This document shows positions 14,501-53,788 of a DNA stretch of 64,000 bases, one piece after another (the stretch's first letter is position 1; every line of letters starts with the position of its first letter). The notes beneath the pieces were generated by a model. It was not told the origin of the DNA and ran no database searches. It saw only the letters and a program-made list of their open reading frames with translations. Source of the stretch: Ophelia neglecta (Eukaryota); contig CBDIWN010000008.1 of NCBI GenBank assembly GCA_965285935.1, positions 806,001 to 870,000 on the forward strand, written 5' to 3'. The translations under genes and the position numbers were made by a program.

Positions 14501-17500
14501 ATAAAAGAAGGTTGGAATGGCCCAATAATTAGAAATTATTCTGAAATCACACTGACATGATATTGTTTGCCGCGTATCCACTCCCGTTGTTCAAAGAAGA
14601 TCCGCATGTATTTTGTAAGTCCGCATTTGTACACTGCGGAATAACTTCCGAAAAGCTTCATTGATTGTAGGACCAGCTCATCCAGAGCATTATTATATAG
14701 AACGGTTTATAGGATAATGCTGGTTGCGCTTTTCTATAGTATGAATGATAAACAATCCAACGACCGTAGCGTTTACAGGGAGGAATAAACAACGTTTGAG
14801 GAGATTGATGTTTTCTTTTATATGCGTTTTCCTATTTTAAGCTATGTTGCACACGCGTGGCGAGGTGAAATAGCCTTTGAGGACGTTTCAAATTTAGTAA
14901 TCGCCCTGCCATTCTACATAGGTGGGAACAACTCTTTAAACTAAGGCTTTGCTGTAAATATATTTACATTAACAGGAAATGAACACATATGTGTAATTCT
15001 TGTCAATTTATTTTAACTTATTTATTGATAAATAATATATGTATTAGTTACTAAAAGAATTTTATTTTTAGGGAAGGACGCGCAATTGTTAAGAATAAAT
15101 AGAGGGGATTTCAACCGGTGTTTCCACGGTGATATTCCTCTGGCCACAGTTTTAATGCCCATTATGTAACTCCTCTAATCTTTAGCTAGAAAATAGGCAT
15201 AATCCTAACATTTACACTCTCATATAAGCGCGATCTTGAATTTCTAGACCTGGTCGTCTACCTATTTACACCCAGCTTTTAACTTTGATATATATACCTT
15301 AGACAAAGTAATTGGATTATACGACAAGCATTGAAACAAATTAAAAGCGTATTTGTCTGCCAGTTTGTAGATTTGGCAACACGGCGGAATGTCTGTTTCC
15401 ATGTCTTTGCACTGCTGGCTGTGACATAACGACAGGAGCGTGTTTGTCCCGAGGATTATGTCAGCTGGACGATCCCACGACAGCCGGAATAAGGAGAACA
15501 GGAGCTGGTTGTGGAATAGGTAAAATTGTCGCTTTCGATTATGATAGTTGCGAGCCATGATAATTGTAATCATCATGAAGCGGATGAATGACCATTTTGT
15601 TTTGTCCGCCTGGTGTTCACTCCCGGTTTTTACTAAGCGGTTACCTGTTCGATATAAGTTAAGAAACAGCTCGATTTTTCTGGTTATTTTACCCGCATCT
15701 TTAAATCAGCAAGTGGGTGTATAATATGGAAGGCAGAAATGTATTTCAAATATGCCAGCGCACTCGGAGTGTCTATCAATAATTATCTACGGGTAGATAT
15801 AACGAAATTGTACATTAATTCCTCATTTAGAATTACGGTAACCAATGTAGAAGGCGGCGGATGCTGATAAAAAATCAAATAAGTTACTGACAATTTAACT
15901 TGTAATGTTTAGGTAATGTAGCGCTTAGAAAGCCGGCCTATCAGAGTGGAACCTGGAGGAATTCACAGGCGGGTTTGGCCGTGGACGGTATTATTACCGC
16001 TGACATATCCCAGTGTGCTCATTCTGACGCTAAGGCTGGGAACAGATCCTGGTGGTATGTCGATCTCCTAGAGACCTACACCGTTATCAGTGTCACCATC
16101 TACAACAGAAGAGGTTCACATTCCGGTTAGTTATATACTTTCAAGGTTTTATTTTTAACTTGACCTTCTGTCAGGGAGTGGGTTCAGGTGACATATCGAG
16201 AAATGTAAAATTGAAATGGACAGGATATAAAAGAAGGGTAATATACCTCTACCTTTATGACAATTAAGTGAGATACTCAAAAAAGTTTTTCAGAAAGAAA
16301 AAAAGTTTTTCAGAAAGAACGAAGATGTATACTGATGGGTAACTATGAAGGCTACACTACATATAATTTAGTGCCCAGCTCACTAGCTATTGGCTACATT
16401 ATCTTAAGAACTGGGCTTGGAAGAAACACCACCTAATAAAGGCCATGCAATGAACAATTTATTGTACGATCACTGCCTTTCTGCCTATTTGATATTTTTT
16501 TGATATTTTTTGGGGGTTCTTGTTATAACAGATTGGATGATTTTTGCCGAATAATTATTATCCAAATTATAATCATAAGTAATATTTGAGAAATAACTAC
16601 GGAAACTAGTTCCCGAGTACATTTGAACATGATAACTAGACTTCATAACTCGCCCAGTATGCCGAATTCGTCTCATTTGACTGTAGGCGTCACGGGATAC
16701 TGTGTTCACGGGTGACTCCATGCACAATGTATCGTCAGAAAAGAGACAAAAACAAGAGACACCACAGGGAAGTTACTACTGGCACTTTGAGACCGATGCC
16801 TTGAGATAATAACCAAAAACACCAGCATTGCCAGCATTTACCTTGAGATAGTTAGAATACATCAAGTTACTAATCTCACACAGACACTGGGCTATAAATG
16901 GTAACGGAGGCCATAGCGACTGATCTCCCAGAGGCAGGGTACATATTAAAAAAATTACTGACCCCTGGGGTAAAACTATTCCAGACTAGCACAGAAAGAT
17001 TGTTTGCTGCAAATGCAAACCGACTGTGGTCTACATTCCAGATATGACTTTTAACAACTGCAATGCTATGCTTATGTACATAAACATGACTAACAGAATT
17101 TTGCAATAAAAATTCACACTACCAACATTTTGTAGAAGTCTATGTCCTTTTGGCATATTATGCATATAAAGCCCCATCATTGATGTCGCAATTAAAGTAC
17201 TGTTATTGAGGTTGCAAGGGTTTTTCTTCTATTTCTTACAACTAGAGCGAACAGGACACTTCCGACTGGGAGTGGGAGACGTTACCGATGGTGACCAAAC
17301 CAGTCTTTGTAAGAACTATGCAGGCGTCGTACCTGAGGGAGGACATGACACCATAGACTGTAACTTGCCAGTTACAGGGCAATATGTCACCATAATCCGA
17401 GATGCAAATGGATTTGAACCCCACTTGCTTGGACTGTGTGAGGTTATGGTTCATGGATATAAACCAATACGTATGCTGAGTAGCAATATTTTTGTTTCAT

Positions 17501-20500
17501 AATGAAATTTTAATATAATGTTGCGGCTAACACTAAGCTTTCGTTCATGCAAAAAGTTTAATAACTAATATTATATTATTATCCGGTTTCTGCGTGGAAT
17601 TTTTGTTTGTTTGAGATCATACTGCTATAATTGGTTAATTTTAAATTTCATTATTAATTAATTAAGAAAAAAATCCATGGTAATATGATGGTTGCATTCT
17701 TTATTTGAGTATTGTAACTAATGGCTGATGACGCGGTTTGGTAAGCTAAAGCCAAGAATATAACTACATAGTTAGAACCAATGTTAAACGTTCCTTAACT
17801 AGTGTACATTAAACGTTGGGCCTAAATTATTATTAACGTTACTCATTGTTGTTTGATGGATAAATGTAAACAGAACTATGTACGGGCTATGTACTTGTAT
17901 GATTGGGTATCATGGAGAGCAGTGCGAGTACAACTGTATGGAGTACAGAAGTATGTACACATTCCGGTATTTAGTATGATTTGTCTTCCCATCGACAGAT
18001 TGTGACAGTGATCGTTGTCAGTCATGTAGTCCTCTTATTGGCTGCGACAAATGTGCTCCGGGAAGTAAATACCCAGATTGCAAAACAGGTAAATGAATTT
18101 TAGTATTTTCGATAGCGCTTTTCCTATGTAGTATTTGGAATTTTATTATGAGTGTTATATATCTAACTATTATCTGCCCCATATAATAATATACATGATT
18201 TGTAACCTTCTTTACAGAATGCGATAAAGAACATTTCGGCGACAATTGCGAAAAACGATGTAGTGATAATTGCCTAATAAATCGGGGGTCTAACTCTCGA
18301 TCATGTAAACTCTCTGACGGCGCTTGTCTCAATGACTGTAGAGAAGGCTTTTGGGGTGACATGTGTGATGGCACGTGTAATATGAACTGCCGGCGGATAG
18401 TTAGTGATGAAGTGTGTTCAAAAGATAACGGGAGTTGTACCCAGGGATGTCTGGACCCTTACTACGGAGACCAGTGTTTACAATCTTGCAGTAGTGGATG
18501 TAGAGTCGTCACGGGCTCCAACACGTGTCACATGCACACAGGGTCTTGTAATAACGGCTGTCTACCAGGGTTCTACGGCGCCCAATGCGATAAGACATGT
18601 AATAATCAGTGTCGTAGTCTCTGTGAGAGATACAGCGGGCTATGTACTTGTATGATTGGGTATTATGGAGAGCAGTGCGAGTACAACTGTAGTATTCATT
18701 GTGAGACAGTCGATAACACTCAGACCTGTGAAAAGGACAGCGGAGCGTGTAGTCACGGATGTCAGCTACCACCTTATAGTACCTGGTATACTGGAGATAT
18801 GTGTAGCCAACGCATAGGTAACAACTCGTTTTACTTAAAAACGATTCCACTGAACTGAATACAAATATACATTTACCTTCTTTTATGATTGTTTTACAGC
18901 GTACTTGGGTTACCCATCGAACCAAACTATGACAATCATCAACATCACAGCAACATCTGTCACCGTGAGCTGGCCCCACACAGTTGTTTTTCCCAAAGAA
19001 AACTTGCGTTTGTATGGCTACAGAGTCTATGCCATTACTGGAAATCAACAGACTTTATCTGATCATAAAATTGGTACCGACAGTGCTTTGAAAATATATA
19101 ATCTGAAAATAACTGGTCTGCAGGAAAACACTGTTTATAACATGAAGGTGACTCTGTATCGTACAGTGTCGGGAAGAACAGAGGAGAGTCGAAATAGCTG
19201 CATGGTCGTATCTGTTACCACATTACCAGGTAAATATGCGGGTATTTAAGGTCGTTCTTATATATGTAAAGAGAAAATTTAGAAAATGGGAAGCGCGAAA
19301 CTTGAAACAATGAATGGGCATTAAAATACATGCTACAAAACGGCTACCTGTTTAGGGTGCTGAGCTGTTAGTGCGTGGCACTTTGTGGATATGACTGCCA
19401 TGCGGGTTTGGGCGCATGCCGCATCAGCGCCGCAACGGCGGTACAGCCTATTTCACAGGAACCAAGAAATACATTATATGTTGGCCATTTTACCCATGTG
19501 TTATATTCCAATAAGCTGTTTATGTTGACCAGGGCAAAATTATCCACTGGAATCGGGCGCATTGGTAGGAATCGTAATAGCGTGTGTTGCATCACTCACC
19601 ATCGTTACCATAGTTATAGGCTGTCAATTTTTCAGGTAAGTGAAATTGATATTTTCTTATTGATTACATGTAACAGTTAAGGCATTAGGACAAATTCATT
19701 TCTTAGTTAAAACATCCCAATAGAATGTTATCTCGTGTATTATTTGTCTATTGTTATTATATGCATGCCTGCATATATTCATGTAGTCCCTTGCTGGAGT
19801 GTAGATATTTTATGTGGAATTGCTGTCATTTTTTCGCCGGTCCTACTTTTTCATATATGCAGAGTAAGAATTCACCAACGTTCAACGAACGAATCACAAC
19901 CAACTGACCACCAGGGTAACGCTACCAAAGGAGTTGAGTCCACTGAATTCAATTTTTACGAGGAACCGTCACTGGAAGCAACCGGCTATGGTAAGAGCTA
20001 ATGAGCTATATGGGTTTCTGTTTTATAATAATTCTTTATTTAATTTTACTGCATTACGAGGTCTGACCAAATAACGTAACGGGACAAAAAGATCCTCCTT
20101 TAATACCCCATGGTCACAGACTAATATTGGGAACTAGGGAAGTACATGTCTACCTAAATGTAGTTCTTCACTTTGATCGGTGTCGTGTATAGCGACAGTT
20201 AAGTATTTAGGTTCATATATTAGGTGCATAATATCTTAAAACTTATCGTTGTTTATAATAAGTGCATTTCCACTAATGGATGACACTGCTCGGGCAATGA
20301 TATTCCTTGCACTTTAATATATATGACTGTAAGGGAAGCGGGGGGCTTGGTCAGTTTCAACACACATGTTTCTACACGACACCATTATCAAGCTTGAAAA
20401 TGCAGGTTTCTGTGAATTTCGCTACGATTTATACATGCAATAATATCGCAGAAAACATGGGTTTTAACACTTGTTTAAGCAAATAGCAATGAACAATCTA

Positions 20501-20760
20501 CTTTCGAAGCTTTTCGTTAGTGCAGATTTCTTGGCCATGAGGAACACTATGGAATAGTGTTATGTTCTTTATTTTGCCATATTCCATTTCACTTGGAATT
20601 GTAGTCCTGTATGATCTTTAATAAATGTAATGTGCCATTTAAGGATGGTTTTATATGTTTTACAGCTAACCTGACGGAAGATGGGAAACCTATGTACGAA
20701 CAATTTCACCCAAATTCAGATTATGAAGAAATAGACAAGATAGGTGGCTCCAAGCAATAA
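11577..20760 (+). CDS. Paralog B: kringle + F-type lectin + EGF repeats + FN3 single-pass receptor with tandem Tyr-motif tail (~762 aa)
   Basis: Exons 11577-11652 (signal peptide MAPITCLCWLVISSVFLSARVAGQP), 13946-14218 (kringle), 15364-15519, 15913-16125, 17246-17470, 17999-18088, 18218-18817, 18900-19229, 19533-19635 (TM GALVGIVIACVASLTIVTIVIGCQFF), 19863-19990, 20666-20760 (ANLTEDGKPMYEQFHPNSDYEEIDKIGGSKQ*). All introns GT-AG; total 2289 nt, open frame. Confidence 0.88.
12121..12330. repeat. 30-bp minisatellite (ctatatcttataccacccgtcctaatctga)
   Basis: Four near-identical 30-bp units at 12121-12240, followed by degenerate units. Confidence 0.9.
13946..14218 (+). CDS. Kringle domain exon of paralog B (phase 1-1)
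   Basis: Flanked by ttttcag| and G|gtaatc. Translation LCKITAAGREYNGTLAVTTSGIICQRWDNQSPHSH..NNYCRNPD..VWCYTLDPNTRWQLCDIRFC has six Cys and the NYCRNPD and WCYT kringle motifs. Confidence 0.92.
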
Positions 20761-22194: not shown

Positions 22195-25100
22195 TAATAG
22201 CTGTGTGGCCTTGTGAACATTGATATTATTCATTCGAAAAAGTCAGCGCCCCTCCTATAAGTTAAAACAGTTAATTTTTTTGCTTCTAAGATACGCTCTG
22301 GAACATCCACCAACACCCGGTCTTCCAAAACCATTAATCCGCACAATGACGCTCTGAACGACACTGATCGTTTGTTAATTAGATCTACATGCTGTTTTAA
22401 AATTAGTCTAAAGAGTCTTACTTTTTGTATTGTGAGAAGTAAGGTTTTTCGAGTGTATTGTGTATAAAAATATTGTTTACAGTTTACATATCGTGTCTCT
22501 TCACCTCTGTTGAAACCCGTCTTTATTGGTGTTTCACAGTAAACAAACGAACGAGGGTTACGATTTATACGACCCTTATGGTAAAAAATTGTATACTGCC
22601 TCTAACTTAACCGTTAAGTTTTAAGAATATAGATAGATGTGCCCCTTATTCATTTTTCATGCCCTTATGCGTATTATTTATTATATTTTGCAACAACCAA
22701 CACGGGTATTCGCGCGCTAATGACTTAGATCCGTTGTACGTTGGATATGATGTACACTGTTTATATGTGTTTACTGATTAGCTGAACTTTTTACTTCCAG
22801 TGTTACCAGTCGGTCCAGTTAATATTAGGGTTAATGATCAATGCCACTAGTTGGTTATTTCGCGGGTATTTAGCCGAGGTCTGGACAAGCCTTTCTCCTC
22901 GTCAACACAACCAAAGCGTGGCCGAGGGAGTAGAGAGTCCAACGGTTATATATTTGTGGATAGATTAGTCGTACGGCCATTATAAGCACTTTGAGCGGAT
23001 ATTACAAGATATGTATATATGTATATGCCACATCCGTCACATGTTCCCTTACATAACTCAATTTCCTTTTATGCTTTTATGCCGCCCTCAGTTGAACTCA
23101 TGCCAGTTTTGTGTTGTGACTATGTCCCATTCAAAATGCCTTGTAATTTAGTCGACCCGATCTCTGACCAGTCGACAGCTTGGCGAGGTTCATATATTTG
23201 AATCTTAATTTACTCTCTTCAATTTATCATTTGTTATGTCCAGGAAAATTGGCAAAATAATTGCCGTTTTGAATCGAGTACTTATCCGACCTCCTCCAGT
23301 ATCAGGTATCGTAGAGCTTGGAGCAGCTACGTATTTTACCTTGATGTAAATTATTGCTGTTATGAGAATCGGCGTGTAGACATCTTGGATTCAGCTCGAT
23401 TCCGGCAACACCGGAAGTGTATTCACGGCAGATAGTACAAAAACCATAATCCGGGAATATCAATTAATCCCGTGATGTGCATCGCCCGGCAGGTATTTCA
23501 GAGTTACGCCACCCTATGGTTTATGCCTATGACCCCATCTCGGAGAGGGAATCAATTAATTGAGGGAAGTATTATCTCCGAAACTAGAGCACAGAAATAT
23601 AGGCCGTTTTGATCTGTATATATCTAGAAAGATGTCGCTGCTTCTGACCTGGTCGTTTTTTTGATGTGGACAAAGCACCTTTGATTGACAGCCATACTTC
23701 CCAGTAAACCTTAAGACGAGCAAACCATGCAAAGGAGAGCTTTTTCAGAGGCGGTGCGAAAATGCCTGAAGCATAAGCTGCCCCAAGATGAATCTCCGTA
23801 ACTACATCTATGACATATTGTAATGATACAGACTTCAATGTCAGGAAACGCCAGCAGCCAATGGTATTGAAACTGTATCAAAACAACTTTAGTTATGATG
23901 TTATCTGTATCCTTCCCAAAATACGTTTTATTAATTTATCAAATAGTATAGTCCCAGTATTTCCTCGTCCATCAGCGTTTTGATTTGGGATTAACACCTA
24001 GATGCGCATGACAACCAAACGTCTATAACATTAACGCAATTCCTGCCTATATATAGTTTAAGGTAAATATATCATAGTGAATCTACATTGCACTAAAGTT
24101 ATAATTTAGCAAAGGCTTGGGCATAGCATTTAGATTTGCATAGTAACCAAACTTTCATAAGCATAAGGCCACAGGCATGTTTCGAGAATCGTGACGTCAC
24201 AAAATCAACGTCATGAGGATTATACCAAAAAGATCCGCGGTATAGCACATTAGGAGGCATTTACCTTCGTTAAAGTGCCAGGCCAATAAGTGTGTTGTAC
24301 CGTATCAGAGAACGTTTGCCTTTATTCTTCAGGGCAGCAATGAACGTATCAGAGAACATACGCCCAAAGCAAAGTGGATAATTCACACCAAACCTTATGT
24401 TATCTAGTAGACAATTCCTACCACAGTTCCAGCGGCTTTCATCTATTTTTATTCCCATGCTCGTTAAAAGACTGACATAGGATTGTATGACCCTGTTAAC
24501 CGATCATGTCTGAATGATATACCATCAGGGTGGCGTGTCGATGTAAACTCAAAACACTATTACAAGTGCCTTAAGGTGTGCAAATAAAGATGGATAATTT
24601 CTTGAAAGAAGACGCATTAAAAGAACCCCCTCCTGTCTAATCTGTGATACTCAACAACCCATAGAAGCCTTGTTATTATGTTTGAAATGTCGCTGGTAAG
24701 GATTTCCTTGTTTGTAGTTTCCCTCCAAAGCTCGTTCAAACGAAGATAAAACCATTATTTATGTATCATAGCGCGATGATCACCAGCCCTGCTAGATACC
24801 TGATATAATCGTTTAAATAACTGTTTAAAATTGATTTTCATGCCCCAACATATTTGACCAGGATTAAATTATATACGACGATTATGGGAGGAAAACATAT
24901 CGCATCTTTTATAGATACATAGTGGCGACAAATTGCGTTTTCAGGTCAATAAGCATTACATTAGACATATACGTATATCATTCTGAAATTTTTCCCGTTC
25001 ATTCCTATGAGGCCAGTGAATGTCTGTCGAATGCAAAGATATCTGAATTGTCTTCTATTCTGCTACTAAGTCAATTTTATATCTGAAAATAGGCGCACGT

Positions 25101-25945
25101 CTTTATGTGGCAAAAACGTTCGTAACTTTATTTCATAAAAATAAAATGTAAACGCATTGCGATTAGTATGAATAAAACTGCTTCAAGTACCTTTACCATT
25201 ATGTTTATGCTGGAATTGAGTTCCCGATGAATTAGAATAAATAGTTATGACATCCCTACAAACACTCCTGATTGTATAGCCACTTTATTCACTGCTAGGC
25301 GTGTTGAGACGAGTTTATTTAGTTCTAGACGACCGCTCAGCAAGGAGAACTTTAAATTCATTTTTAATGTATGCACGTTCGGTAGATGTGCCTGTATGTA
25401 TACGTGCGATTCAGAAATGGCTCCTATCACGTGTCTGTGTTGGCTGGTCATTTCCAGCGTCTTTCTTTCAACTAGAGTCGCTGGTCAGCCAGGTCAGTTG
25501 ATATATGTTTGCTATTTTCGTTTTGCAATAACACAATATTTTTGTTTTTGGCAGTGGAATGATTCAGGATTCAAAAATGTGGAGACATCTTATTTATCGA
25601 TACAATGCAAGACGACAGTAAATTAGCTACTGTTATGTTTCATGTAAAAATATCAGTGTATGTTGGAAACTCGTATGTTCCTACTGTTAAACTTTGTGGA
25701 TGAAAGGTCATACGGACTTTATAAGCACTTGAAACGAATACTAGCAGATATGTATATATATATATATGTAACGTTATTAGCCACATCCGTCACATGTTCC
25801 TCGTAACGTTACATAACCCCATTTCCTTTTATGCTTTTCTGTGCATCGAAGATCCAACTCCGGAGATAGACCTTAGTTGCACCGCAATATTACATATTAA
25901 TTATAAAGAAAGTTAAAGTTAAAGTGCTTAAATTATATTCGGCTG
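22195..25945 (+). repeat. Duplicated intergenic / first-exon block, copy 2 (upstream of paralog C)
   Basis: Colinear homology to 8868-12080, interrupted by mostly different sequence at about 22820-24290. Confidence 0.9.
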
Positions 25946-28900
25946 CGGAGGTTATTCTGAATAATGAGCTGGGACCTGGACCATGGGAAAATAAAATGGG
26001 CAAGAAAGCAATCAAAATTAGGTGACTGTCTAAAAATGATCCTTTGGTAATGAAAAGCATAAAAACCACTATATTCGCCGACCTAGCCCCAACACCCTTT
26101 CATACAACCTGGGTTGGGCTCCGCCTCTGCTGTTTGTCCGGCGGAAGAACAGTATCGGGAAAGGTCTCATCCCTCTACCCAAGCCTTGCTTATGTGGTGA
26201 ACGATTTGAACCCCCACATCTCTCCACCCCCAACCCTTACACCTTGGTTGGATATTCCCCTCTGATGCTTGAAACATTTGAAAGACGGTGCTGAATGATA
26301 CTTCTATGTTAGATATGCCATGCCCCAGAAATCTGCGAGTCTGCTTGGGCCATGTTCGTTGATCAAGGTGGTCACATATGAATAAAAGCTAGTATCTGAC
26401 CTTCTGGGCTAAGGTTCGACGATTGTGGGCCTTTTCAAACGGGACATTCTAGCTGGCTGATGCCCATATCTTCAATATGGTTGGCTGAGTTAACAATTCG
26501 GCAAATTGGGGTAGGCAGAATAGGTAAAAAGCATTAGGGTAACTAATGTCTATTCTGGAAAATACTATAAATTTGCATGTGCATAACATTTTTTGACAAT
26601 AAAATTTGGAATAACGGATAAGGCACAATTACTATTATATAATCCTGTGTTTGCGTATTTTCAGTACCCTCACATTTATTAAGGGATTGAATATGACATT
26701 CCCACCACAGATTCATTTCATTTCACTCGAGGAGCAATCGAACATACTTTTTTGGCAAAAGGCTAAGACAAAATAAAATAGGTTTTTTTAGATAAGAAAA
26801 CCAGCCCTTCATCAGAAGGTCTACTATATTGTGCATATTACATAACCGCATACACCAATAGAAAGCTAATGTCAAAGCTACATACTTTCACCATGCTGCT
26901 TGTATTTGAATCGTTTGTGATTATTTAGTGAACAATCAAGTCGGTTTCCTTTAAAACAAAATTGAATTATGTTAAAAGGGGCAATATAAGGTAGTCTTGA
27001 ACGACAATATACTCTTCATTTGTATAAGGGCTTGACACTAAACAGAAGAAAAATAATGTTTGTGAGATGTTAAATGGCTTGCTACCCCTCATGCAGTATT
27101 TATCTCAATATTATAGAGATATTTAAATTTCGTTAGATTCGACAACAATAAATCGCCAACGTTCAATCCTTTTCAATAGTTTATTGAATACATCCCCACA
27201 TGCCAGACAGGCAGTAAATAATACAGACTTGATCCGTTAAGAGGGTCATATCAGGCGCTTTGCCTTCTTTTGAACGAGCAAGGGAAATACAAATAGTAAA
27301 AGACTTCAACACCAACAGGTAAAAATTGTGAGCATATTAAGTCAACGGGATAATTCTAAAGGCTTTGGTGAGAGCGAGGGTGGAGGGGGGGGGGGGGGAC
27401 GGGGGCGTAATTCAATGCATTCCCAAACTACCAGTTTGAATCCGACATATACTTCTCTCACTCTCAATCTCAATGGTCTGATTTGTCAACTTTCTTTGCA
27501 CACCTTGAAGTGCTAGCAATAGTTTTATTATTGAATTAATCTCGACATGTCGGAGAGAGAGCAAATGGTATGCTCATGGTACCTGGGTAGTACCGAACGG
27601 GTTGTGGGTTTTTAATTTCTTCTGTGTACAGAAGAGTGTTTTCATGAGAGTACGAAAATAAGATATAAATAAGCCTAAATGGAATAATAAATGGAAGCAA
27701 AATAATCAAATTTTCAGCAAAATGTGATTCCTATTTATTTACTTATAAATACTTCAAAATATTGTCTGATGACTACATGGTTTTCAATCAACCCCCGACT
27801 ATTATTAAAACACTACTTCATGCTGTGTACTAGTCACGATAATTGGTGCCCCGTGTAAGATTAGGAGTTGAACTAGGCTTATTAACGTCATCTCCGACTG
27901 GCAGTATTCAAGAATTCATGCATGCTACTAAAGTATGTTAATTAAGCACTAAGTCTTCGAATCGTTTGGGCAACTGTACTGTGGGTTTCAGCGTAAAATT
28001 AAATATTACCCAAGTAATGGATTTCTTCGATCTTATGATCAAGTAGCAAGGGGCGGGAGAAGGGGGGGGGGGGCGACTGCTCTTACTACTTGTTAAGATA
28101 AGGCTAGTGAAACCCTTGGTTTGCGTATACATTTAAGATGCGAAGATAAAAAAAAATCCCAACGGTTGTTTATCGAAAATGTAACAAGCTGTCACCCTGG
28201 AGATTGATATGAGAAGAGAATTGATAGATCACATCCCGTTCCATGCAAAGCAAAAACCAAAAAAAAACTAACGTGACGCATATACCAAAAAAAAACCTGT
28301 TTGCGTATCATGGAAAGTAATTGTCCTTCCTCACAGAATAAGAGAAATAAAAATGAGATAAAAAAGGATCTCGCAATAGGAAAGATAAGTCATGCATATT
28401 GAACACTACTCAGTGAAACAAAAACTATCTGATAAGGGTAGGCGTGATATGGAGAATGGGTTTATGTATGTATTGGAATCAAGCTTTGTCCCGATACCCT
28501 TCTAGAAATAACTTCATTGAAATAAAAGGGAAATTTCGATTTGGGAATCAGAAACCATCTTAACTCGTATATATCTTATGTTTAATAAAGCACATCAGCC
28601 AAATTGACGCAGCTCACCAATTAAACTAGTTTTTTAGATATTCTTTTTTTCATCAGGTCCGTGTTTGTTTGGGCGCACTGCGGACTGCGTATACCCCTGT
28701 TTGTGTACCAATGGTTGTGACCGGATGACAGGAGATTGTATTAATGGAGGGCAGTGTCCGTTGGATGATCCTGCCATCATACGAAAAGCCGGACCTGGAT
28801 GCATACTCGGTAAAATTGTTTGCCTGCTTTATTTAAAACATATAAACTATTGAAACGTATGCATATTTCGGTCTTCTAATATACTTAGGGTGTACACTTT

Positions 28901-31900
28901 AGTCACTTAATAAACAACGTCACTAGATGCACATCAGGAAGTGCGTGGCTCGTGCTAACGTTTAAAAAATGAATGTATTTAAGATTTTGGGAACACGAAA
29001 TCATATTTTTATTTGATACACACCAGCGTGTATTATTAAACGTCTGAACTAAGCGAACACTTTTCTGTAAACCAAGAAACATCTTCACAGCTCTAAATGG
29101 AAGACGCCGCCAATATATCAGACATATTTCATAGCAAGCTAAGACAGTATTAACTGTAAAGTATGTTACTAAAGTATGTTACGAGAGGTCCCCAAACCTT
29201 TAACTCTAAAGCATGACAACATCACACTGTCATTAAGTACTTTAAAAACAATGCCTCAAACAAAAGGTGACGTTGTATTTTAGTTATTAATAAATAACAT
29301 CTCTAACTTTTACGCGATCGGCATTGTCTAACAGCCCTGTGATGCTAATGATTTGTTTAAGACATTTTCCGACAAAAACCCTTAGTGTTGCCATTATTTT
29401 GTTTTTCCCATAATTAAAGGTTACCAGCTGTTGCTAACATCTTTTTTTGGTAGCCTTTACCATCACAACGCGTTTCAAAATTTTGTCAGCCTGATTTTAT
29501 TCCTTGTCCTGCATGCCGAGTTTCGAAGTTTACACCTAAGAAAATGGCAAAAAAAATTATGCTCTGACTTTTTTCCAAATTTTATCGTTCCGTTGTTTCG
29601 TTGTCTGGAAATTGGCTCCTGTCCCGAAAAAGGCAATGACATCGACTTAAATCGAATGCATGGAATTAAGCTAACTGCTGTATTGGGTTTTGCACGACTT
29701 TCACTTATCGCTTGCAGCGCTCTTAATTTATATTGATTGATACAAATAAAAAATCTTAGTATCAAAGATACCTCAAGCTAGTAGTATGCGCCTTTATATT
29801 TTAGCTTACCAACTTCCTGGTCGACTACTCGGTCTGTCTTCACTACGCAGCCTGGCGCATTGCTTCACTGATGGAAACATTATTGACAGATCGCAGGGTA
29901 TATAAAATATTAATATGAACTGGTTGCCTAAAACAGAAAACCGTTGAAATAAAGGATTTCGAGCCGCGCGAATATCACGAACGGGAGACTTGCATACAGC
30001 CTAGCATCAGATGTAATAGTCAAGCATCAACCGAACAAACTTACGGCTTCACCAAGGGCGAAATCTCCCCATGATGTCCCCAATAAATTAACACTGCCCA
30101 AATCTCAACGGCGAACGTGATGAACAAAACTGATATATTTCTCGCCTAAACTAGATGCACTGCTTCAACTTTGATACATATTAATTACTGGGCAGGGCTC
30201 TTGCGCTTTCTATTGTAGTTTTATACCGTCATAGGAGGCTATCTTTGGTAGAACCTGTGTATGTTCCACGGGTAAATGGCACAAACTCTGCCGCATCGAT
30301 ATCCCTGGAAAAAGAGTTGTTCCAATCAGTAATAGTTTTGGGAAAATACATTTGGTAGGATGAGGTTCTGCAGGTTGGTATTATGAAAAGTTGTCTGTCC
30401 AATCCTCTGGTATTGTATCCCCAAGATGAATGAAAGTAGCTATATGGGAATGAAGATAGATGGGGAAGAATCTGACACAATATCATAAAACTTACAGAGC
30501 CGTTGGCATTTTTCTATAGCAAACATTTATTACTGAAACGAAGTACCATTCTAATGTTTCCGAGCTGGCTGGTATAAAATAATTCATACCTTTTGAAATA
30601 TGTATTTATGTGAGTCACGAAAGCATGAAAGTGACGTATTACTTAACAGCCTGTTGAATTAACACATTTGTATTTAAATAGGTAACGTTGCTAAGGGGAA
30701 GCCAGCTTTTCAAAGTGGACAATATGGTAATTTAATCGCGGGCTTGGCCGTGGATGGTCTCCTCATTAAAGATGACCTGACCTGTGCACACCCATTGGCT
30801 CAGCGTGGTATGAGAGGTTGGTGGTACGTTGATCTAGAGGATACCTACACAGTAGTCAGTGTCACCATCTTTAACAGAGGTCAACCTCCGTATTACAGTA
30901 AGTTGGCGATGGAATATTTGGTAAACTGACATAATGCTGGCCGTAAATATACATCGGTTTTATTTTAAGTATGACATTCTATCACCGGCATAAGGGGCTC
31001 CCTAGAAGGGTATGCAAACAAAAGATGAAATTTATGTTCCCACGGATGAAGATTTATTGCTACTAAAAAAATGAATTGGTGTAATCGCGACCACAAATAT
31101 AATTGTTCATATGTACCAACAACTCGATATTTTTCCATCGCAGTGGGGTCGCGGTGGGAATGGGTGGCCAATTTCTTATCATTTATTTCTCTTCGTCTGC
31201 TAGTAGCTGCGTCACTCACAAACATATGATTAATGCAATAGAAACAAAAGTATTTTCTACAAGGGCAATATATATTATTTAAACTTCTACTTTTTCATGA
31301 AATATAATCATATATCAACTCGTGAAAAAAATGACCTACTTATTTCTCGCAAACATTGTCAAATTGGCAGATATTATCTGCTTCAGACCGTGATATTAAG
31401 TCATAAGAAAGATCAGGTAAAGATTTCTATTTGAAAACTTTAAACGTATTTAAAAGGGCAGTAGATCAATACAGCCAACCGTTGGCTTTTTATATGTTGA
31501 ATTAGAAAACGGGTACAATGTAGACTAATATTCTTTAATATAATACATTACCCGATAACTGTGCTCTTGAGAGCGAGGCCATTGCGTCCTTTGGGCTACT
31601 GCAGATGTATCCGGTATTTTTTATTCACAGAACGCACTGGTAACTTCCGCCTTGGAGTTGGTTCCCAGACTAACGGTGACCAGACAAGTCTTTGTAAGAA
31701 ATACACAGGTGTAGTTCCTCAGTCAGGACACGACACCATACAGTGTAACTCACCCCTCAGCGGCAGATACGTCACCATTATCAGATATGCAGGCGGGTAT
31801 GATGACAACCAATTTTCTCTGTGCGAGGTTTTAGTTCATGGATACAAACCTATTGGTATGTTAAAACCAGTACACAACGTCTTCCTTGGATGTATGTAAC

Positions 31901-34900
31901 CAACTGATATTGTGACCATTTGAATTAGACAATGGCTGCCTGTGGAATAAATACCGACAGACACCATAGCTTATTGTCGCCATTGAATAAAATACCCTAA
32001 CTATTTATATCGATGTTCAGTTAATATTTGATATTAATTATGTACAAGGGCTCAGCCGACCTTTACCTGAACACAAAAGGAAAACATAAGCATTCTGCTT
32101 CTTTTCCAATTGTTTAATATAATTAATAATGCACATGTTATTAATGCACAATTATTATGATTATTGAAAATGTACATGGATTTGTGATACAATGAATTCA
32201 ATGCAACATCTTCAACATCAACAACAAACTATGATAACGCTGTTGTTATTCTGGCACTTGACTTTTATCACCTGTTGTTCAGCTGAATTCTTCTGTTTTT
32301 ATATATAGAAGCTGGTGTACTAAAGAAAATGTAATAAAGTATTAATTCTGCTCCTAGTAATTAACCTGTCATTGCAGTGTGTGAGAGTAATCGATGTCAG
32401 TCGTGCGATCCTTTAATTGGCTGCACTAACTGCACTCAGAATTCTAAGTACCCCGACTGTGAAGGTAGGCTCACTGTATCGACGTGAGAACAAAAACAGG
32501 GCTCTCGCTTATTGTACATATTTGAGTACAAGATTAAAAATATCATTATGTCTTAAAATGTATACCTTTCTGGGAGGAATTACTTCTCATTATAATATTC
32601 TACACGTTTTTGCAATCTGTCTTACAGAATGCAGCCATGAAGAATACGGGGACAATTGTGAAGGACGATGTAGTGCTAATTGTTTTGGATATCAGTATTC
32701 TACCTCTCGTTCGTGTTCCATCTCTAACGGAAGTTGCATAAATGGCTGTAGAGAAGGCTATTGGGGTGAGAAGTGTGAAAACATGTGTAGTATGAACTGT
32801 CGACAGATATCTGGGGAAGAAGTGTGTTCACTTAGTAATGGTAGTTGCACCCAGGGATGTTTGGAGTCTTACTACGGAGACCAGTGTCAACACTCCTGTA
32901 GTATTGGATGTAATAACAACTCGGACTCCAACATGTGTAATATGGACACAGGGTCTTGTATCAACGGCTGTCAACCAGGGTTCTACGGCGCCCAATGCAA
33001 TAAAAGATGTAGTAATCAGTGCCGTGGTATATGTGAGAGGTTCGGAGGGCTTTGTACTTGTATGATTGGGTATTACGGAGAGCAGTGCGAGTACAACTGT
33101 AGTATTCATTGTGAGACTATAGAAAACACACCGACATGTAAGAAGGACAGTGGGGCGTGTAGTCACGGATGTCATCTACCACTGTATAAAAACTGGTATA
33201 CTGGAGATATGTGTACCCAACCCATAGGTAACACCATGGTTTATTTTAAAAGCGGGTCATCTTAAATTGGTCGTATTATATCCAACAAATACAAAGTCCT
33301 ATTTTAATTTGATTATGATCGTTTTACAGTGTACTTGGGTTACCCAACGAACCAAACTATGACAATCATCAACATCACAGCAACATCTATCACCGTGGGC
33401 TGGCCTCACACAGTTGTTGTTCCCAAAGAAATGGCGCGTTTTTATGGCTACAGAGTCTATGCCATTACAGGAAATCAACGGATTTCATATGATCAATCAA
33501 TTACTACCAACACTGCTTTGAAAACATATAATCTGGTTATAACTGGCCTACAGGAAAGCACTGTTTATGACATTAAGATTACCCTGTATCGTAGAGTTTC
33601 GGGAAGAACCGAGGAGAGTAGAGATAGCTCCATGATTGTTTCTGTTACCACTTTACCAGGTAAATATGTGGGTATTCACGGTTGTCGCTTAAAAAATCAA
33701 TGGGTAATACAATTTACTACAGTACTGATACCTGCCAATGGTGCTGTGCTATCGATGTGCCACGTTGTACAGATGTGACTGCAGTGCGGGTTAGGGCAGT
33801 GTTAATTAAGCTTATCCAGAGCACGCCACGCAGCACCGCAGCAATGGTGACCCAGAATATTTCACAGGAATATATACTTCTATTAGGAAATATAGACTAC
33901 TTGTGAAATATGCTGTGTCACCGACGTTTCAATGTTCCAACAAAGCTGTTTATGTTGACCAGGGCAAAACAATTCAGTGTCGCCGGGGGCATTGGCAGCA
34001 ATCGTCATAGCGTGTGTTACATCAATCATCACCGTTGTCATAGGTATATGCTGTCTAATCTTCAGGTAAGTGTATACAACGGAAATGTTCTCATTCATTT
34101 CATGGAACAGCATGCATGCATTTTTAAGTTAAACAAACCCAATACAATTTCATTGTGTATTACTTGTCTTATGTTATTTAATGCTTGCCTGTAGATTCAT
34201 TCATAAAACCCAAGATGATGTGTGGATATGTTGTGCGCAGTTGTGGTCTTTTGTTCTCCGATCTTATTTTTTTCTATATGCAGAGTACGAATGCGCCAAC
34301 ATTCAACGAACGAATCACAAACAACGGACCACCAGGGTAACGCTACAGGAATTGAGTCCACTGACTTCAACGTATATGAGGAACCTTCACTGGAAGCAAC
34401 CGGCTATGGTGAGAGCCAATGAGCTATTTGGGTTTTGGGTGATAATAATTTTTTTCTTTATTTGAATGCAGTACAAGGTTTGACCAAGTGATCATTAATT
34501 TCATATAATACAATGGGTATGTGAAGTACATGAGCAAGGAATGTCCGTAAATACCCCGTGGTAACATTATAATATTTTCAACTAAATAAATTTCTACTTG
34601 AATGCCTTTTGTCCGTTTGAAATACTTATTAATATAACTGAAGACAAGTATTTCGGGTCATACCTTAGCAGCATAAAATCTTAAAACTCATCGTGGTTTA
34701 TAATGCGTGCATGGACGCTTATGGACAATACTACTTGGGCAATGATATTCTTTGCACTTGTATATATATGACGCTGAGAGAAGGGGTGGGTTTTAAATTG
34801 GTCAGTTTCAACACACGTGTTCCTAGACGACATCATTGTCAGCTTAAAGATATAAATTTCTGTGAATTTAGCTACAATTTATACAAGCAATAACATTACA

Positions 34901-35277
34901 CAACGACATTGGTTTCCACCCTTGTATAAGTAAATTACAACGAGCAAATTATTTTCGAAGTTTTTTTATCGAAGCTTTTTTATTTCGAAGCATATTGATT
35001 GAGGATCTTTTTTGTGATTATTGCAGATGTTAGCCAACATGTATTTTTTGCAATCTGAAAAGTATAAACATATTAATGATGTTCATTATTTAACCATTCT
35101 TGAATTTCACGTGGAGGTAAAGGCCTTTATGACTTTTAATAATCTAATATTTGAATTAAAGGACGGTTTTATATGTTTACAGCTAACCTGACGGTAGAGG
35201 GCAATCCAATGTACGATCAATTACACGCTTATTCGGATTATGAAGATGTAAACAAGACAGTTGACACCAAGGAATAA
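25417..35277 (+). CDS. Paralog C: F-type lectin + EGF repeats + FN3 single-pass receptor with NPxY / tandem Tyr-motif tail (~669 aa)
   Basis: Exons 25417-25492 (signal peptide), 28657-28809, 30682-30897, 31631-31855, 32378-32464, 32628-33227, 33330-33659, 33963-34065 (TM GALAAIVIACVTSIITVVIGICCLIF), 34284-34408, 35183-35277 (ANLTVEGNPMYDQLHAYSDYEDVNKTVDTKE*). All introns GT-AG; total 2010 nt, open frame. Confidence 0.9.
30290..30480 (-). mobile_element. 3'-end relic of a non-LTR retrotransposon ORF2 (CR1/L2-like)
   Basis: The minus strand encodes YNTRG..FIIPTCRTSSYQMYFPKTITDWNNS, matching the RT..Y..SFFPRTIxxWNxL-type C-terminus of these elements. Confidence 0.55.
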
Positions 35278-40652: not shown

Positions 40653-43600
40653 ATGGCTCCTCTGATTAATGTGTGCTTGATAGTCAGTTCCACTGTCTTT
40701 CTTACAGCTAGAGTTGTTGGTCAACAAGGTTAGTAAATGTATCTTAACTATAATTATGTGTATTACATTTATACAATCTTGTTGTAGGCAGCGGCATGAT
40801 TTGATATTAAAATGTGTGAAAGTGTGTTTTATTTGAGACACAATGCAAGACGATAATGAATGAGCTACTCTCTTGTCACATATAAAAATAATAAAAGTGT
40901 GAGTTGCCTAACGGTTATATTTTATGTTGAATTTTGGTGATGCATTATCCCTAAATGTATCAGAAATATGTGGCCTGGTCGAAGCCGACGATACATCTTA
41001 AAATCTTAACCAAAATCGTAACACTAACTACAGACCATCCCCTTCGCACCAGTCGAGGTGAATTGTTCTGAATCATTTGCTTGCTCCACAATTTATAATT
41101 CCTGACCTCCAGTACCCTTGCGACTACCCAAAGATCGCTAAGAGTATACCTTCATCACACGCCAAATCTAAATGTATAAATTAAATTGAGAATAAGCGAA
41201 AGGTATAGTTGCGGCCCTCAAGGGTTACACGGGGCAGAAGCCTTCAATAGTGAGAAACGAAGTAGGGAGAGAGGGGGGGGGGGGGAGCAGCTGTCCGGGA
41301 TTTGGCATGGCTAAAGTTTGACCTCCCATAAGCTAGGTATAATATTACCATTATAAAGTAAATGTAATAAAGCGATGTAAAAATATTAGTGACCTCCGCC
41401 AGTAAGGTTATACATATTTCACGGCTTAAAATGGTCTCTTGGTGCAAGAATGAGCTTCGCCAACTTCTAAATCCGTCCATGGAATCTTAGTCAAATGCAT
41501 GACTGATTGTTTGCAAAGTGGTGAATTCTATACGTGAAGTATGTGCATACACGCTACGTGCAAATACCATCACCATCCTATAATACACAGTCAATGATCA
41601 TCGCTTTGTATTGGAAGTAGGTCAACGACTAAATAGCTTAATACTTTGAAAGGCAAACTTGTCAAGCTTCAGTATTCATGACTCCATTTTGTACTGTTCT
41701 AAAGAATATATATCGATGAATATCTGGTCTAGTCTGAAACATTTGTCTCAATCTATTACGCTAATACACAATTACAATGAAGCCGACGGAAAGTTCTTGG
41801 GTGCGGTAAGGCTAGACATACGCGAGCACTGCATTTCTGTCGTGCAAGTGCAAAGGGCAGTGACTCCCGCTTTCGCGCGATGGCTTACTTTCCAGAAGAA
41901 ACAGACTTTAGTGCAAAACCGCTGACCCGTTAAGAGAGTTTTTTAACATCAATTGTAACATTCAAACTGTATATTCTTCTTCAGGTCTATGTAGATTTGG
42001 TCATACTGCGGACTGTGTATTTCCCTGTCTGTGTATCAATGGCTGTAACAAACTTACAGGAGCTTGTTTAAATGGAGGACTGTGTTATTGGGATGATCCT
42101 GCCACCATGCGGAGAACTGGACCAGGGTGTAAAATTGGTAACCTTTCTCATTTTTGTCTATAGTACATAGATCATCTTTGGAAGTATTATACAATCTACT
42201 AAGTAAATTAATTGTATCCCTTAAGTCATTTCTTACAACGCTCACCAAACGAAAAAGGCACCCGGGTCACACTCTAGCTGGCTATAGCTAAACTGTTCAA
42301 AGTGTTCATAAAAACATAATTATTTTCCATTTAGAATTAAGAAATCCATTTTCTATGAACTCCACATCCAATACATATTTCATATATCCAAACCAGGAAA
42401 TATTACCACGTGTGTATATGAAAGTCTTAATGAACAAACACCATTTATGTATTCAGTCTTTTCAATTAAATCTCCAGATAACAATTATCATAATAGTAAA
42501 AATGTAAGCACCCGTTAATACTTCGTTAATACATGATTCGTTCAAAAAGCTAAGACTATCACAAACACCGGTTTATTACCAATGATTAACATACAATCTT
42601 TGCCCTGAAACAGAGAAATTACATAAGCTCATTTAATTTAATTTAAGCTCACGTGAAAAGTGTGCTATTTATATATTAAAACCCGTTATTAACTGTGATG
42701 AATATAGCCAGTAAGTATATTTGACTACCATTCATGTATTCCGTCCTAACCTGGATAGGTTCCCACTTATGAAACAATCAGGAGTTCTGACAAACATAGA
42801 CTTTTAGAAAGCTTTAGTAATATAATAAGTTGTTTCCATACTACACATAGGGATCTTTTTGTATAAAGAAACTTGCAATAACTTCTTTGTCGTGGACGGG
42901 TTCACCATTAGTAAGAAAATAACTATGCTATAACTATGTTTTCTTCTAGTAATTACCTCCCTCGTCATTTTTTATAATATTGTGTTTAGGTAATATAGCA
43001 AAGGGGAAGCCAGCTAATCAAAGTGGTCACTGGAATAAGCTTGTAGCAAGTCTGGCAGTGGATGGTATAGTCAGCACACATATTAGTCAGTGTGCACACC
43101 CTGATGCAGGGTTTGGTAAGAGAGCATGGTGGTACGTAGATCTACAAGATACCTACACAGTGACTAGTGTCACGATCTACAACAGAGGTGATTATCCGGC
43201 GCATGGTAAGTGGACGACTGGAAAACTAACTCTGGTTACTATGCGCACGCAATAGGGTTTGATATATTACATGGACAGAAAACGGGTGTAATGTGTAGTA
43301 TTTTACACAAGAGGGCAGATTTTGTTCACCCGGAGCATCGCATGAAATAATCCAAGAAGTACAATCAGAAAAAAAATAATGTTGTAAGAATTGTTATGAA
43401 CACAATACAAAAATAGAAACAAATAAAATAAATTGAAAGAAGTATTTTTTGGCAACATTACAGGTGTATATTCATTCACTTTTTCGACCATTTCATTTAA
43501 TGAGATTTTATTATATAAATAAGTTGTGTCTCAAATCATACGTCATATATTGTGTAAACATCGCTAATATAACATTAATCTCTGCATTGAAAATGTGCTA

Positions 43601-52600: not shown

Positions 52601-53788
52601 CCCCTGACCCCGAGGTAGATGACCGTGTTTCTTTCAAGACAAGAATGCAATACGAATAGCCAGAAGTTAAGTTATCGAATTTACATATATCTAACTATAT
52701 AAACTGGGTCCATATATATCATCAGGATTGTCCCAAGTACTGGGATTTGGAGAAAGGGGAAGTTAGGCATTTTGGTGACCTTGAGGTGCGCATCGATTCA
52801 AAAGACGAAGATGAGAAAGATGTCATAGAAGAAAGAAAATTCACAGTGTCATTTTCCTCAAGTGTAAGTCTATCAATTTAAAACTCATGGATTACTTGGC
52901 ATATGGCAATTATTAAGCGTCAACAGAAATATATTATTTTTGATTACAACATTATTTTAATTATATCGGTTATATAATAAATTACAGAACCAGCCAGTAA
53001 GAGTCTGCCATATATTGTTCAAACAACGTCCAGATATCCAAAATCTGCCAGTCATGGAGGACACGTTAAATTTGTTAGAACGGATTCAGAAGAGTCAACG
53101 ACAAGCTGAAGTTGGAAACATTGTTATGCAATGCAAGTAAGTTATAAACACATTACCACTGTTTGTAAAAGAACTAACACACACATAAATAAGCCAGCTT
53201 CAACCCTATGTTACATCTTTCTTAAAACTCTTCTGAACTCTCATTGCCTTGTGGTCACGCGTGGTAAGGTGATATGTGATAAAGGAGAGTATTGATCTCT
53301 TTAAAGCAGCCCGAACCCTAATTAACTTATCATTTACTACTTCTGTATTTCTCAGAGATGGAGCTAGTCGAAGTGGAATGATATGTGCGGCACATTATAT
53401 GCTGGAGAAGATGCAGGAAGAGCGCGAGGTGGACGTCTTTCTTGCTGTTAGGGTTGTATCTCTACACAGACAACAATTTGTCAACAATTTGGTAAGTAAT
53501 ATAACTAATCGGTGTATTGCCGGAAGGATTTTCAAGAATTGTTCAAAAGGTTACTTTTCTGTAATTGATAAAATAATTTAAAATTTCAAAAGGTCTGTGT
53601 ATATTCAACAACATTAATTTGCAATGATAGTACACTATTTATACATCTGTTATCTGAATCATGTATATTAAGATATCGCCACAGGTAAGATCCATATTTC
53701 CATTTCTTAACAGGACCAGTATCGTTTCTTACATGGTATTGCAATGGAGTATATTACAAGGAACAAGCTCTATGGAACCTTTAAGTAG
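40653..53788 (+). CDS. Paralog D: receptor-type protein tyrosine phosphatase with F-type lectin / 9 EGF-like units / FN3 ectodomain and tandem PTP domains (~1413 codons; one internal TAA at 44330-44332)
   Basis: 25 exons: 40653-40728, 41985-42137, 42990-43205, 44259-44486, 44762-44848, 45062-46114, 46389-46736, 47130-47244 (TM), 47415-47500, 47621-47835, 48446-48533, 48802-48872, 49536-49575, 49847-49944, 50070-50198, 50705-50850, 50959-51094, 51447-51596, 51933-52032, 52147-52220, 52480-52614, 52726-52863, 52988-53136, 53356-53491, 53714-53788. Total 4242 nt with all intron phases consistent. Confidence 0.9.
44847..44980. repeat. Three ~45-bp tandem copies that include the 5' splice donor
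   Basis: aggtagg..tacc.tgttaac.t.cattat.t.ttagaca at 44847, 44892 and 44938. Confidence 0.8.
48446..51596 (+). CDS. PTP domain D1 of paralog D (catalytic motifs intact)
   Basis: Spliced motifs in canonical order: [75 protein letters not shown]. Confidence 0.95.
51933..53788 (+). CDS. PTP domain D2 of paralog D (probably a pseudophosphatase)
   Basis: [42 protein letters not shown]; WPD loop reads RPD; P-loop VMQCKDGASRSG; Q-loop reads FVNNLDQY; TAG at 53786-53788. Confidence 0.9.

Follow-up and report, generated by a model that had tools for sequence, protein, structure and literature searches.

The window analysed here is a 64,000-nucleotide stretch of Ophelia neglecta DNA (contig CBDIWN010000008.1 of assembly GCA_965285935.1, positions 806,001 to 870,000, forward strand) that carries tandem paralogs of a lectin-bearing receptor family. 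One of these paralogs, gene C, is probably an intact chimera, in which the Cys-rich, lectin and small epidermal growth factor-like (EGF) exons (together, the sensor) of the D/E/F/G/H branch of the family sit on the stalk, FN3 domain, transmembrane (TM) helix and tail (together, the backbone) of the A/B/K branch. The two parts were likely joined by unequal crossing-over, and the product is predicted to couple glycan-type binding to tail signalling. We place the probability of this reading at roughly 0.78. The ancestries of the modules of C conflict, and the borders between them are defined.

Sequence Data and Gene Set

The window corresponds to C16:806001-870000 of a 762-Mb assembly, from which we read C16 completely (962,826 bases), C7:90.74-91.10 Mb and portions of distant clusters. 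The second lectin exon of C has at least 150 matches (150 of 150 scored, from 318 candidates) on C16, C7, C5 and C2. The 46 gene models built on C16 comprise 13 with phosphatase exons, 27 with short tails and 6 truncated or unresolved; 19 of the 46 carry a stop or frameshift in their extracted exons, though some of these flags may be errors in extracting the long EGF exon. Labels A to E follow an earlier sequence-only reading of the window; F denotes truncated genes at C16:477-508k, G and H genes at C16:596k and C16:606k, K genes at C2:112.4 Mb, M and N those at C7:89 Mb, O other C7 clusters and X those on C5. Exon trees, of 38-46 rows each, used 46 selected genes, and concatenated trees used 31 rows for the sensor and 29 for the backbone, outgroup clusters included; the tree of the last EGF unit leaves out one frameshifted B copy. 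Intron identities from global alignment were discarded as inflated, the floor lying near 70%. C16 overlaps C7:90.4-91.1 Mb, in part at 99-100%, and also holds exact duplications; from the overlap, the two are probably haplotypes. No intact C was seen on C7.

Anatomy of Gene C

Gene C occupies 25417-35277 on the forward strand, with 10 exons, canonical AG/GT ends and an open frame of 669 codons. It encodes, in order, a signal peptide, a Cys-rich module with no Pfam match, an F-type lectin (two exons), a small EGF, a 600-nucleotide (nt) EGF exon, FN3, TM and tail, and its ectodomain exons are all of phase 1-1. The exon lengths of 153 and 87 nt, and the motifs quoted with them in the earlier reading, are as described there. 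The features of the gene are as follows.

24346-25416, forward: promoter block common to B, C and two genes with D bodies (C16:116k and C7:90.998 Mb), from blastn and identity
25417-25492, forward: exon 1, signal peptide, 76 nt, B/C type, 97% identical to B
25945-25952, forward: breakpoint 1, in intron 1, where similarity to B stops (the ends of all B-copy blastn matches)
28657-28809, forward: exon 2, Cys-rich module, 153 nt, sister to F (support 98/87)
30682-30897, forward: exon 3, first half of the F-type lectin, matching 3cqo and 1k12, sister to G (95/83)
31631-31855, forward: exon 4, second half of the F-type lectin, matching 3cqo, inside a 20-row C-K clade (96/99)
32378-32464, forward: exon 5, small EGF-like, 87 nt, D type, with D (85/74) inside C-H (88/94)
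32465-32627, forward: breakpoint 2, in the intron between D-H-type sensor and A/B/K-type stalk; the D match ends at 32469 and the B match starts at 32591
32628-33227, forward: exon 6, long EGF-repeat exon, 600 nt, of A/B/K architecture, with a soft breakpoint 3 near 32930 from unit trees
33330-33659, forward: exon 7, FN3, B type (Pfam fn3 E=3.5e-7; B+C 98/98)
33963-34065, forward: exon 8, TM helix translated without a charged residue, 78% nt identity to B
34284-34408, forward: exon 9, tail part 1, whose last Tyr (codon 34405-34407) is the first of the motif resembling an immunoreceptor tyrosine-based activation motif (ITAM), 89% nt identity to B
35183-35277, forward: exon 10, tail part 2, from the sequence, with the rest of YxxL-x7-YxxL (second Tyr 35212-35214), an SxYxxV (35233-35250) like an immunoreceptor tyrosine-based inhibition motif (ITIM), and the stop

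Conflicting Ancestries Within C

The earlier reading held that the signal exon and upstream region of C are nearly identical to those of B, and this is so: identity is 97% in the exon and 92% over 800 nt of promoter, against the alignment floor of about 70% for D and E. The B-like 5' block runs from 24346 to 25945 (86% to B over 1.6 kb). The 800 nt before the ATG of C are 90-93% identical to those of four of the five B copies, the second C copy and both D-bodied genes, and 86.5% to those of the fifth B copy; B, C and the D-bodied pair form one clade in the signal exon tree (100/100). Downstream of 25945-25952, intron 1 of C matches relic C-type pieces, not B. At the distal end, nucleotide identity of C to B is 86.5% in the distal EGF, 86.7% in FN3, 78% in TM and 89 and 79% in the two tail exons, with the 3' introns and flank aligning at 69-77%, whereas FN3 of C is only 42-46% identical to that of D, E and H. 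The earlier claim that all of these parts track B therefore stands, but it does not extend to the first half of the long EGF exon, where C is no closer to B than to A. Identity windows between C and B in this exon run at 65-83% in the first half and 80-97% in the second, and sites joining B and C, set against A, count 19 vs. 21 in the first EGF unit and 35 vs. 10 in the last.

Between these blocks the affinities of C reverse. Its mean nucleotide identity to A and B vs. the D, E, F, G and H groups is 62-64% vs. 72-79% in the Cys exon, 61-63% vs. 68-73% in the first lectin exon, 67-69% vs. 72-80% in the second and 62-66% vs. 74-84% in the small EGF. These values uphold the earlier assignment of the Cys, second lectin and small EGF exons to D or E rather than A or B; that assignment has to be widened to the first lectin exon, which is also swapped, and narrowed for the small EGF, since the 87-nt form is common to C and D only and that of E measures 90 nt. 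This shorter small EGF is one of two derived indels that C shares. The other is a Cys exon without two residues after DDP, a form common to D, E, F, G, H and K; most outgroup genes have the longer A/B form.

Phylogenetic placement changes along the gene in the same manner. Exon by exon, C falls with F (Cys), with G (first lectin exon), in a C-K clade (second lectin exon) and with D, unstarred (small EGF); its first EGF unit then lies in an A/B/C/K clade (96/90), and its last unit pairs with B (99/96). In the concatenated sensor tree C lies inside a C-H clade (98/93, or 100/98 with K) as sister to E (97/96), and A and B group with outgroup clusters; in the backbone tree B and C pair (99/98) inside A/B/C/K (96/97). 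Approximately unbiased (AU) tests reject, for the sensor, B+C (p=6.7e-14), A+B+C (1.1e-5) and A+B+C+K (5.2e-6) and, for the backbone, C+D+E+H (p=8.4e-73). Informative sites of C switch ancestry at both borders, and a two-breakpoint chi-square reaches 116-162 with four D/E/H parents, against a permutation maximum of 22-24 (0/200 reaching it). Recombination in C, as proposed earlier together with exon trees and breakpoint tests to check it, is thus borne out by well-supported, incongruent trees and significant breakpoints, with outgroups placing the foreign sensor in C.

Synonymous differences per site (pS) identify the recombinant. Between C and B, pS is 0.68 in the sensor, 0.36 in the first EGF unit, 0.30 in the last, 0.16 in FN3 and 0.22 in TM and tail. 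Between B and A it is an even 0.40-0.47 (0.41 in the sensor, 0.41 in the first EGF unit, 0.47 in the last unit with FN3, 0.40 in TM and tail), the Cys exon being the exception at 0.21. Between C and A it is 0.66 in the sensor and 0.40-0.46 elsewhere. Since B-A divergence is even and C-A divergence is high in the sensor alone, C carries the foreign block; with the outgroup-rooted trees, this establishes C, not B, as the recombinant, and B was rejected as the sensor recombinant on both counts. It might still be argued that C retains the original sensor of the B/C lineage, with A and B recombinant or B having taken the sensor of A. K, which lies on C2 and has a stalk related to that of A/B/C, likewise has D-H-type Cys and lectin exons, and the low pS of the A-B Cys exon points to recent homogenization there. 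Nevertheless, the stalk outgroups M and N have sensors that are not of D-H type, B-A divergence is even over sensor and stalk, the K sensor lies outside the 98/93 clade holding C, K keeps an A/B small EGF (97/95), and more events would be needed than for two independent gains, all of which makes this alternative very improbable. Indeed, the D-H sensor is the derived type: in distant clusters the Cys exon is the longer one and the small EGF is of A/B type, and it is with these clusters that the A and B sensors group.

The donor is less sharply drawn than the recipient. The sensor of C differs from that of every D-H gene compared by a pS of 0.44-0.57, its nearest relatives (0.44-0.49) standing about as far off as the A/B/C/K split, so that either the swap is old or the donor was not sampled. 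Nor is the donor pinned to one gene, because the sister of C differs by exon and the nearest sensor is 72% identical in amino acids.

Several observations weigh against the history of C as we read it. Breakpoint 3 is gradual. From exon to exon C takes a different sister (F, G, none resolved, D), so the sensor itself may be composite; at 84-222 columns the exons are also short, and the placement from the small EGF is unstarred. For the promoter and signal block, the root reaches no more than 82/89 in the signal-exon tree, and grouping with K is not rejected (p=0.31); an attempt to polarize the promoter swap via A failed, since the likely signal exon of A is unlike the family's signal exons.

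Proposed History and Artifact Check

The B-like blocks at the two ends of C differ in age. The promoter block, at 92% in non-coding DNA, is much younger than the 3' similarity of B and C (pS 0.16-0.30), and it is common about equally to B, C, the second C copy and the two D-bodied genes. Because of this difference in age, at least three exchanges are called for and not one conversion; a single conversion tract was rejected on this ground, and with it the earlier picture of one insertion into a B backbone. In the first step, an old exchange in the intron at 32465-32627 would have put a D-H-clade sensor on an A/B/K stalk. A later exchange would have made B and C alike from halfway along the long EGF exon through the 3' flank, and the youngest exchanges would have spread one promoter and signal exon over B, C and the two D-bodied genes. 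Unequal crossing-over or conversion between tandem paralogs, aided by symmetrical exons and the common promoter block, probably served for each, and such swaps keep the reading frame because the ectodomain exons are all of phase 1-1.

Other genes carry traces of comparable exchanges. The D-bodied gene at C16:97-117k retains, ahead of its D body, intron 1 of C type together with a Cys exon of that type that has decayed. On C7, the stretch covering gene A is 100% identical to the window up to about 8100; across the B promoter the match decays, past the signal exon the DNA is C-like, and a D body then follows; the gene that follows A there thus has B upstream DNA, a C-type intron 1 and a D body, with the switch lying within the common block. 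Two further mosaics are K and G (chi-square 100 and 111, 0/200 permutations). K comprises two genes on another chromosome (C2:112.41-112.44 Mb) in which Cys and lectin exons of D-H type precede a small EGF and stalk of A/B type; since K keeps the A/B small EGF and its sensor is not sister to that of C, parsimony favors a separate event, as judged from sequence. The sampled K Cys exon contains a stop. In G (C16:596-603k), D-type EGF exons are joined to an A/B/C-type FN3, and no TM exon was found by search. Relics of the C-type intron 1, Cys exon or first lectin exon lie upstream of other genes at C16:112-119k, 416-418k and 488-490k, with further C-type relics at C7:90.876 and 90.896-90.898 Mb; these pieces show that C-type 5' ends used to be more numerous.

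The overlap of C16 with C7:90.4-91.1 Mb (partly 99-100%), the exact duplications on C16 and the absence of an intact C from C7 are the circumstances under which an assembly chimera might arise, and rate variation between exons could in principle mimic conflicting ancestry. We consider either explanation extremely improbable. A second C copy (C16:539-556k) has the same mosaic, being 86% identical to C over intron 1 and sensor, though it bears a 7.4-kb insertion, a frameshift and a stop. Moreover, C is 20-30% diverged from each candidate parent, unlike a mis-join, and synonymous sites and indels switch in the same way. In three sequencing runs of one sample, short-read contigs span both the intron-1 border and the sensor-stalk intron, breakpoint 2 being crossed by one contig per run (32424-32866/32898) with at most one differing letter. 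This bridging rules out a mis-join, but as the sample may be the assembled animal it does not count as independent support. An assembly chimera was accordingly rejected, on the two diverged C copies and the bridging contigs.

Sensors on Phosphatase and Short Tails

The earlier reading saw on C a sensor of phosphatase type, acquired by recombination or gene conversion as in vertebrate paired receptors. The phosphatase type of the sensor is not supported. Full sensors were compared for 86 genes, of which 23 are phosphatases. Apart from its own copy, the best match of the C sensor is 72% in amino acids, reached equally by F and by a D phosphatase; among the 23 sampled phosphatase genes no opposite-tail partner exceeds this value, and C has no phosphatase twin in this assembly. 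Genome-wide, the next matches of its lectin exons after the C copy reach 75 and 80% (150 candidates scored each). E, one of the sources originally named, is a short-tail gene, and the donor clade of the C sensor holds both tail types. Near absence of synonymous differences, as expected after recent conversion, was not seen in comparisons with D-H genes, where pS is at least 0.44; the sensor has diverged too far for a recent conversion of the kind known from Xenopus CEACAM pairs.

The version of events in which a single conversion transferred a phosphatase receptor's sensor to a short-tail gene resembling B, yielding an activating decoy for that receptor, is consequently improbable. It would account for the B-like character of C at both ends and for its D-like small EGF exon, and the donor clade does hold all 13 C16 phosphatase genes. 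Yet the best phosphatase sensor is no closer than F, the next matches of the lectin exons among the candidates scored reach 75 and 80%, the sensor pS (0.44-0.57) exceeds that between B and C at the 3' end (0.16-0.30), and non-coding identity is 92% in the 5' block against 69-77% in the 3' introns.

A pair-like pattern, in which similar sensors bear opposed tail types and are intermixed on the sensor tree, is nonetheless real for the D and E subfamilies. On C16, 18 D/E short-tail genes match the sensor of a phosphatase gene at 78-89%, vs. 64-72% at best for the nine A, B, C and H genes. Across 33 of the 46 C16 genes, those of types D, E, C and H, the sensor tree shows nine changes of tail type and the FN3 tree four, and E phosphatases cluster no better than shuffled labels on the former (238/500) but do cluster on the latter (0/500). 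The earlier analogy with paired receptors is therefore apt for D and E and not for C (72%). Phosphatase and short tails of the D and E types would give opposed outputs.

A more speculative proposal, for which we would claim somewhat less than an even chance, is that the array forms a germline mix-and-match immune receptor system. Its four exchangeable modules would be promoter plus signal, lectin sensor, EGF/FN3 stalk, and TM plus tail; the receptor phosphatase would be the "off" member and the ITAM receptor the "on" member, promoter blocks would act as crossover sites that swap gene bodies between haplotypes, and the snail 1B genes discussed below would be ITAM partners of the 1C phosphatases.

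Predicted Function of the Lectin and Tail

The lectin of C matches FBP32 (3cqo; E=8.8e-10 for exon 3, 1e-7 for exon 4) and, through exon 3, the eel lectin 1k12 (E=2.6e-4); Pfam F5_F8_type_C_2 matches half a domain at E=3.4e-5, below the cut-off. F-type lectins bind fucose through a motif of His followed by Arg-x-Asp-x4-Arg/Lys. The His and first Arg of C align with 1k12, at a spacing of 28. The first lectin exon is the least constrained, with a ratio of nonsynonymous to synonymous differences per site (pN/pS) of 0.95 within E and 0.69 within D. On this likeness, the lectin of C is predicted to recognize glycan-type ligands.

The tail motif, YxxL-x7-YxxL, fits the ITAM core YxxL/I-x6-8-YxxL/I, which 35 of the 51 short-tail genes examined possess, counting haplotype duplicates; in B the second site reads YxxF, and the tail of A is without the first Tyr. 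Clustering of C by its ligand would lead to phosphorylation of the two Tyr by Src-family kinases and the docking of a tandem-SH2 protein.

The predicted function meets objections of its own. The Asp that follows the conserved Arg in fucolectins is Gln in C, so the ligand may not be fucose. The full ITAM consensus places Asp or Glu three residues before the first Tyr, and SxYxxV is the ITIM consensus (PMC5112662). C has Ala at -3 and Glu at -4, its third Tyr fits the ITIM form, and the tandem-SH2 genes examined belong to an SHP2-like cluster, all of which runs counter to a simple activating tail. The genome has 43 SH2 matches, of which this C2 cluster was read, and no Syk/Shark orthologue was identified in it. 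Situated at C2:96.40-96.67 Mb, it is a tandem SHP2/PTPN11-like array of 19 SH2 exon matches, mostly N-/C-SH2 pairs (best PDB match PTPN11, E=3e-35). The active-site motif of protein tyrosine phosphatases (PTP) occurs in only two copies over the 200 kb read, and some copies may be SH2-only.

One could thus accept the history given here and still suppose that the short tail is inhibitory or adaptor-like, docking SHP2-type phosphatases and not a Syk-type kinase, such that the two receptor forms would not be opposed. The ITIM-like third Tyr, the SHP2-like cluster, the departures of A and B from the motif and the want of a Syk/Shark orthologue in the SH2 cluster read all lean this way. We think this unlikely, since two YxxL with a seven-residue spacer fit the ITAM core, which the majority of short tails keep, and SxYxxV is absent from the D- and E-type tails inspected.

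Neighboring Paralogs

The other paralogs of the window are as follows.

1664-7600, forward: paralog A (from its Cys exon), ancestral-type sensor, tail without the first Tyr, from the motif census
11577-20760, forward: paralog B, ancestral-type sensor, short tail YxxL-x7-YxxF, intact frame, from extraction and pS
40653-53787, forward: paralog D, receptor tyrosine phosphatase with two PTP domains (Pfam Y_phosphatase E=1e-10 and 3e-13)
58606-64000, forward: 5' part of paralog E, from extraction, continuing past the window into a short ITAM-type tail without phosphatase (gene c16_864)

E was rejected as a phosphatase, its short tail lying just outside the window. The likely signal exon of A (window 1-69, starting a few bases before the window) is found also in an A copy at C7:91.08 Mb, and gene A uses a shifted, weak donor at 5607. 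A 54-nt copy of the B long-EGF exon lies at 17880-17940 in the intron before the B small EGF, and is present in B copies as well. The second lectin exon of D has an in-frame TAA at 44330-44332; the rest of its extracted ectodomain frame is open. In the F genes (C16:477-508k and C7:90.94 Mb), the family match breaks off some 195 codons into the long EGF exon and no FN3 was found; these genes may be secreted forms or decayed ones. C16:511-520k holds spare F-type signal exons. At C16:690-745k and 944-963k there are arrays of multi-kb repeats that are nearly identical and contain no exons of the family.

Comparison With Known Systems

Mosaic genes are expected in tandem immune-type clusters, and C alone is a clean case of a known process. 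Its wider interest comes from snails, where receptors of the same architecture lie under two schistosome-resistance peaks and their short tails are described as having no recognizable domain. Here the short tails share a conserved motif resembling an ITAM, and sensors are exchanged between phosphatase and ITAM-like tails; as C demonstrates, they also pass from one deep branch of the family to another. Were this true in snails, it would offer a testable on/off model for the resistance loci. In the literature searched, which covers few subscription journals, we found no description of lectin-EGF-FN3 receptors paired as ITAM vs. phosphatase forms, nor of their exon mosaics; modularity of this kind, in a family of known architecture, is apparently undescribed.

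In Biomphalaria, the LG5R 1B and 1C genes are clustered and single-pass, with a signal peptide, galactose-binding/fucolectin domain and EGF repeats; 1B has a small cytosolic tail and 1C two PTP domains, and copies vary in presence between haplotypes or are broken (PMC13712769). By architecture alone, C fits 1B and D fits 1C. The portions of that paper available give the short tails no domain signature, its main text lacks the word ITAM, and it lists no FN3 in these subgroups and reports no exon-level mosaics, both of which are present here (PMC13712769). No snail protein appeared among the 120 listed of 145 matches to a profile of 20 first lectin exons (7988 scored, a weak search), which were generic F-type lectins with no close relative; a protein search with the second lectin exon of C scored 0 of 16 candidates. 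In B. sudanica, SudRes1 comprises receptor phosphatases with a galactose-binding domain (GBD), multiple EGF, TM and tandem PTP; 16 of 17 such genes lie in or near one chromosome region, show extracellular diversity and are linked to schistosome resistance (PMC12297450). SudRes1 shares with the present array the GBD-EGF-TM-PTP plan, clustering and extracellular diversity, but its copies are far fewer than the at least 150 lectin-exon matches here, and the account, centered on phosphatase forms, does not use the word ITAM in its main text (PMC12297450).

Engulfment receptors of the Draper/CED-1/MEGF10 type have an ectodomain of EGF repeats, a single TM and an intrinsic tyrosine motif read by a tandem-SH2 kinase. 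We liken them to C by these features of architecture alone; they have no F-type lectin or FN3 and do not form a large shuffled array.

The closest working analogue is the CEACAM paired receptors. In Xenopus and human, CEACAM pairs carry, on tails of opposed type, ligand-binding exons whose similarity is maintained by recombination, and recent conversions in Xenopus show almost no synonymous change (PMC5112662). The likeness extends to the tails, which are ITAM-like, include a YxN site and have the first YxxL interrupted by an intron, although that intron is of phase 1 here and phase 0 in CEACAM (PMC5112662). CEACAM receptors combine an Ig fold with an ITIM tail, whereas an F-type lectin and an intrinsic phosphatase take these roles in the present family. 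Sensor identity within pairs is nevertheless of similar order, at 78-89% in the D and E subfamilies and 80-93% in CEACAM (PMC5112662).

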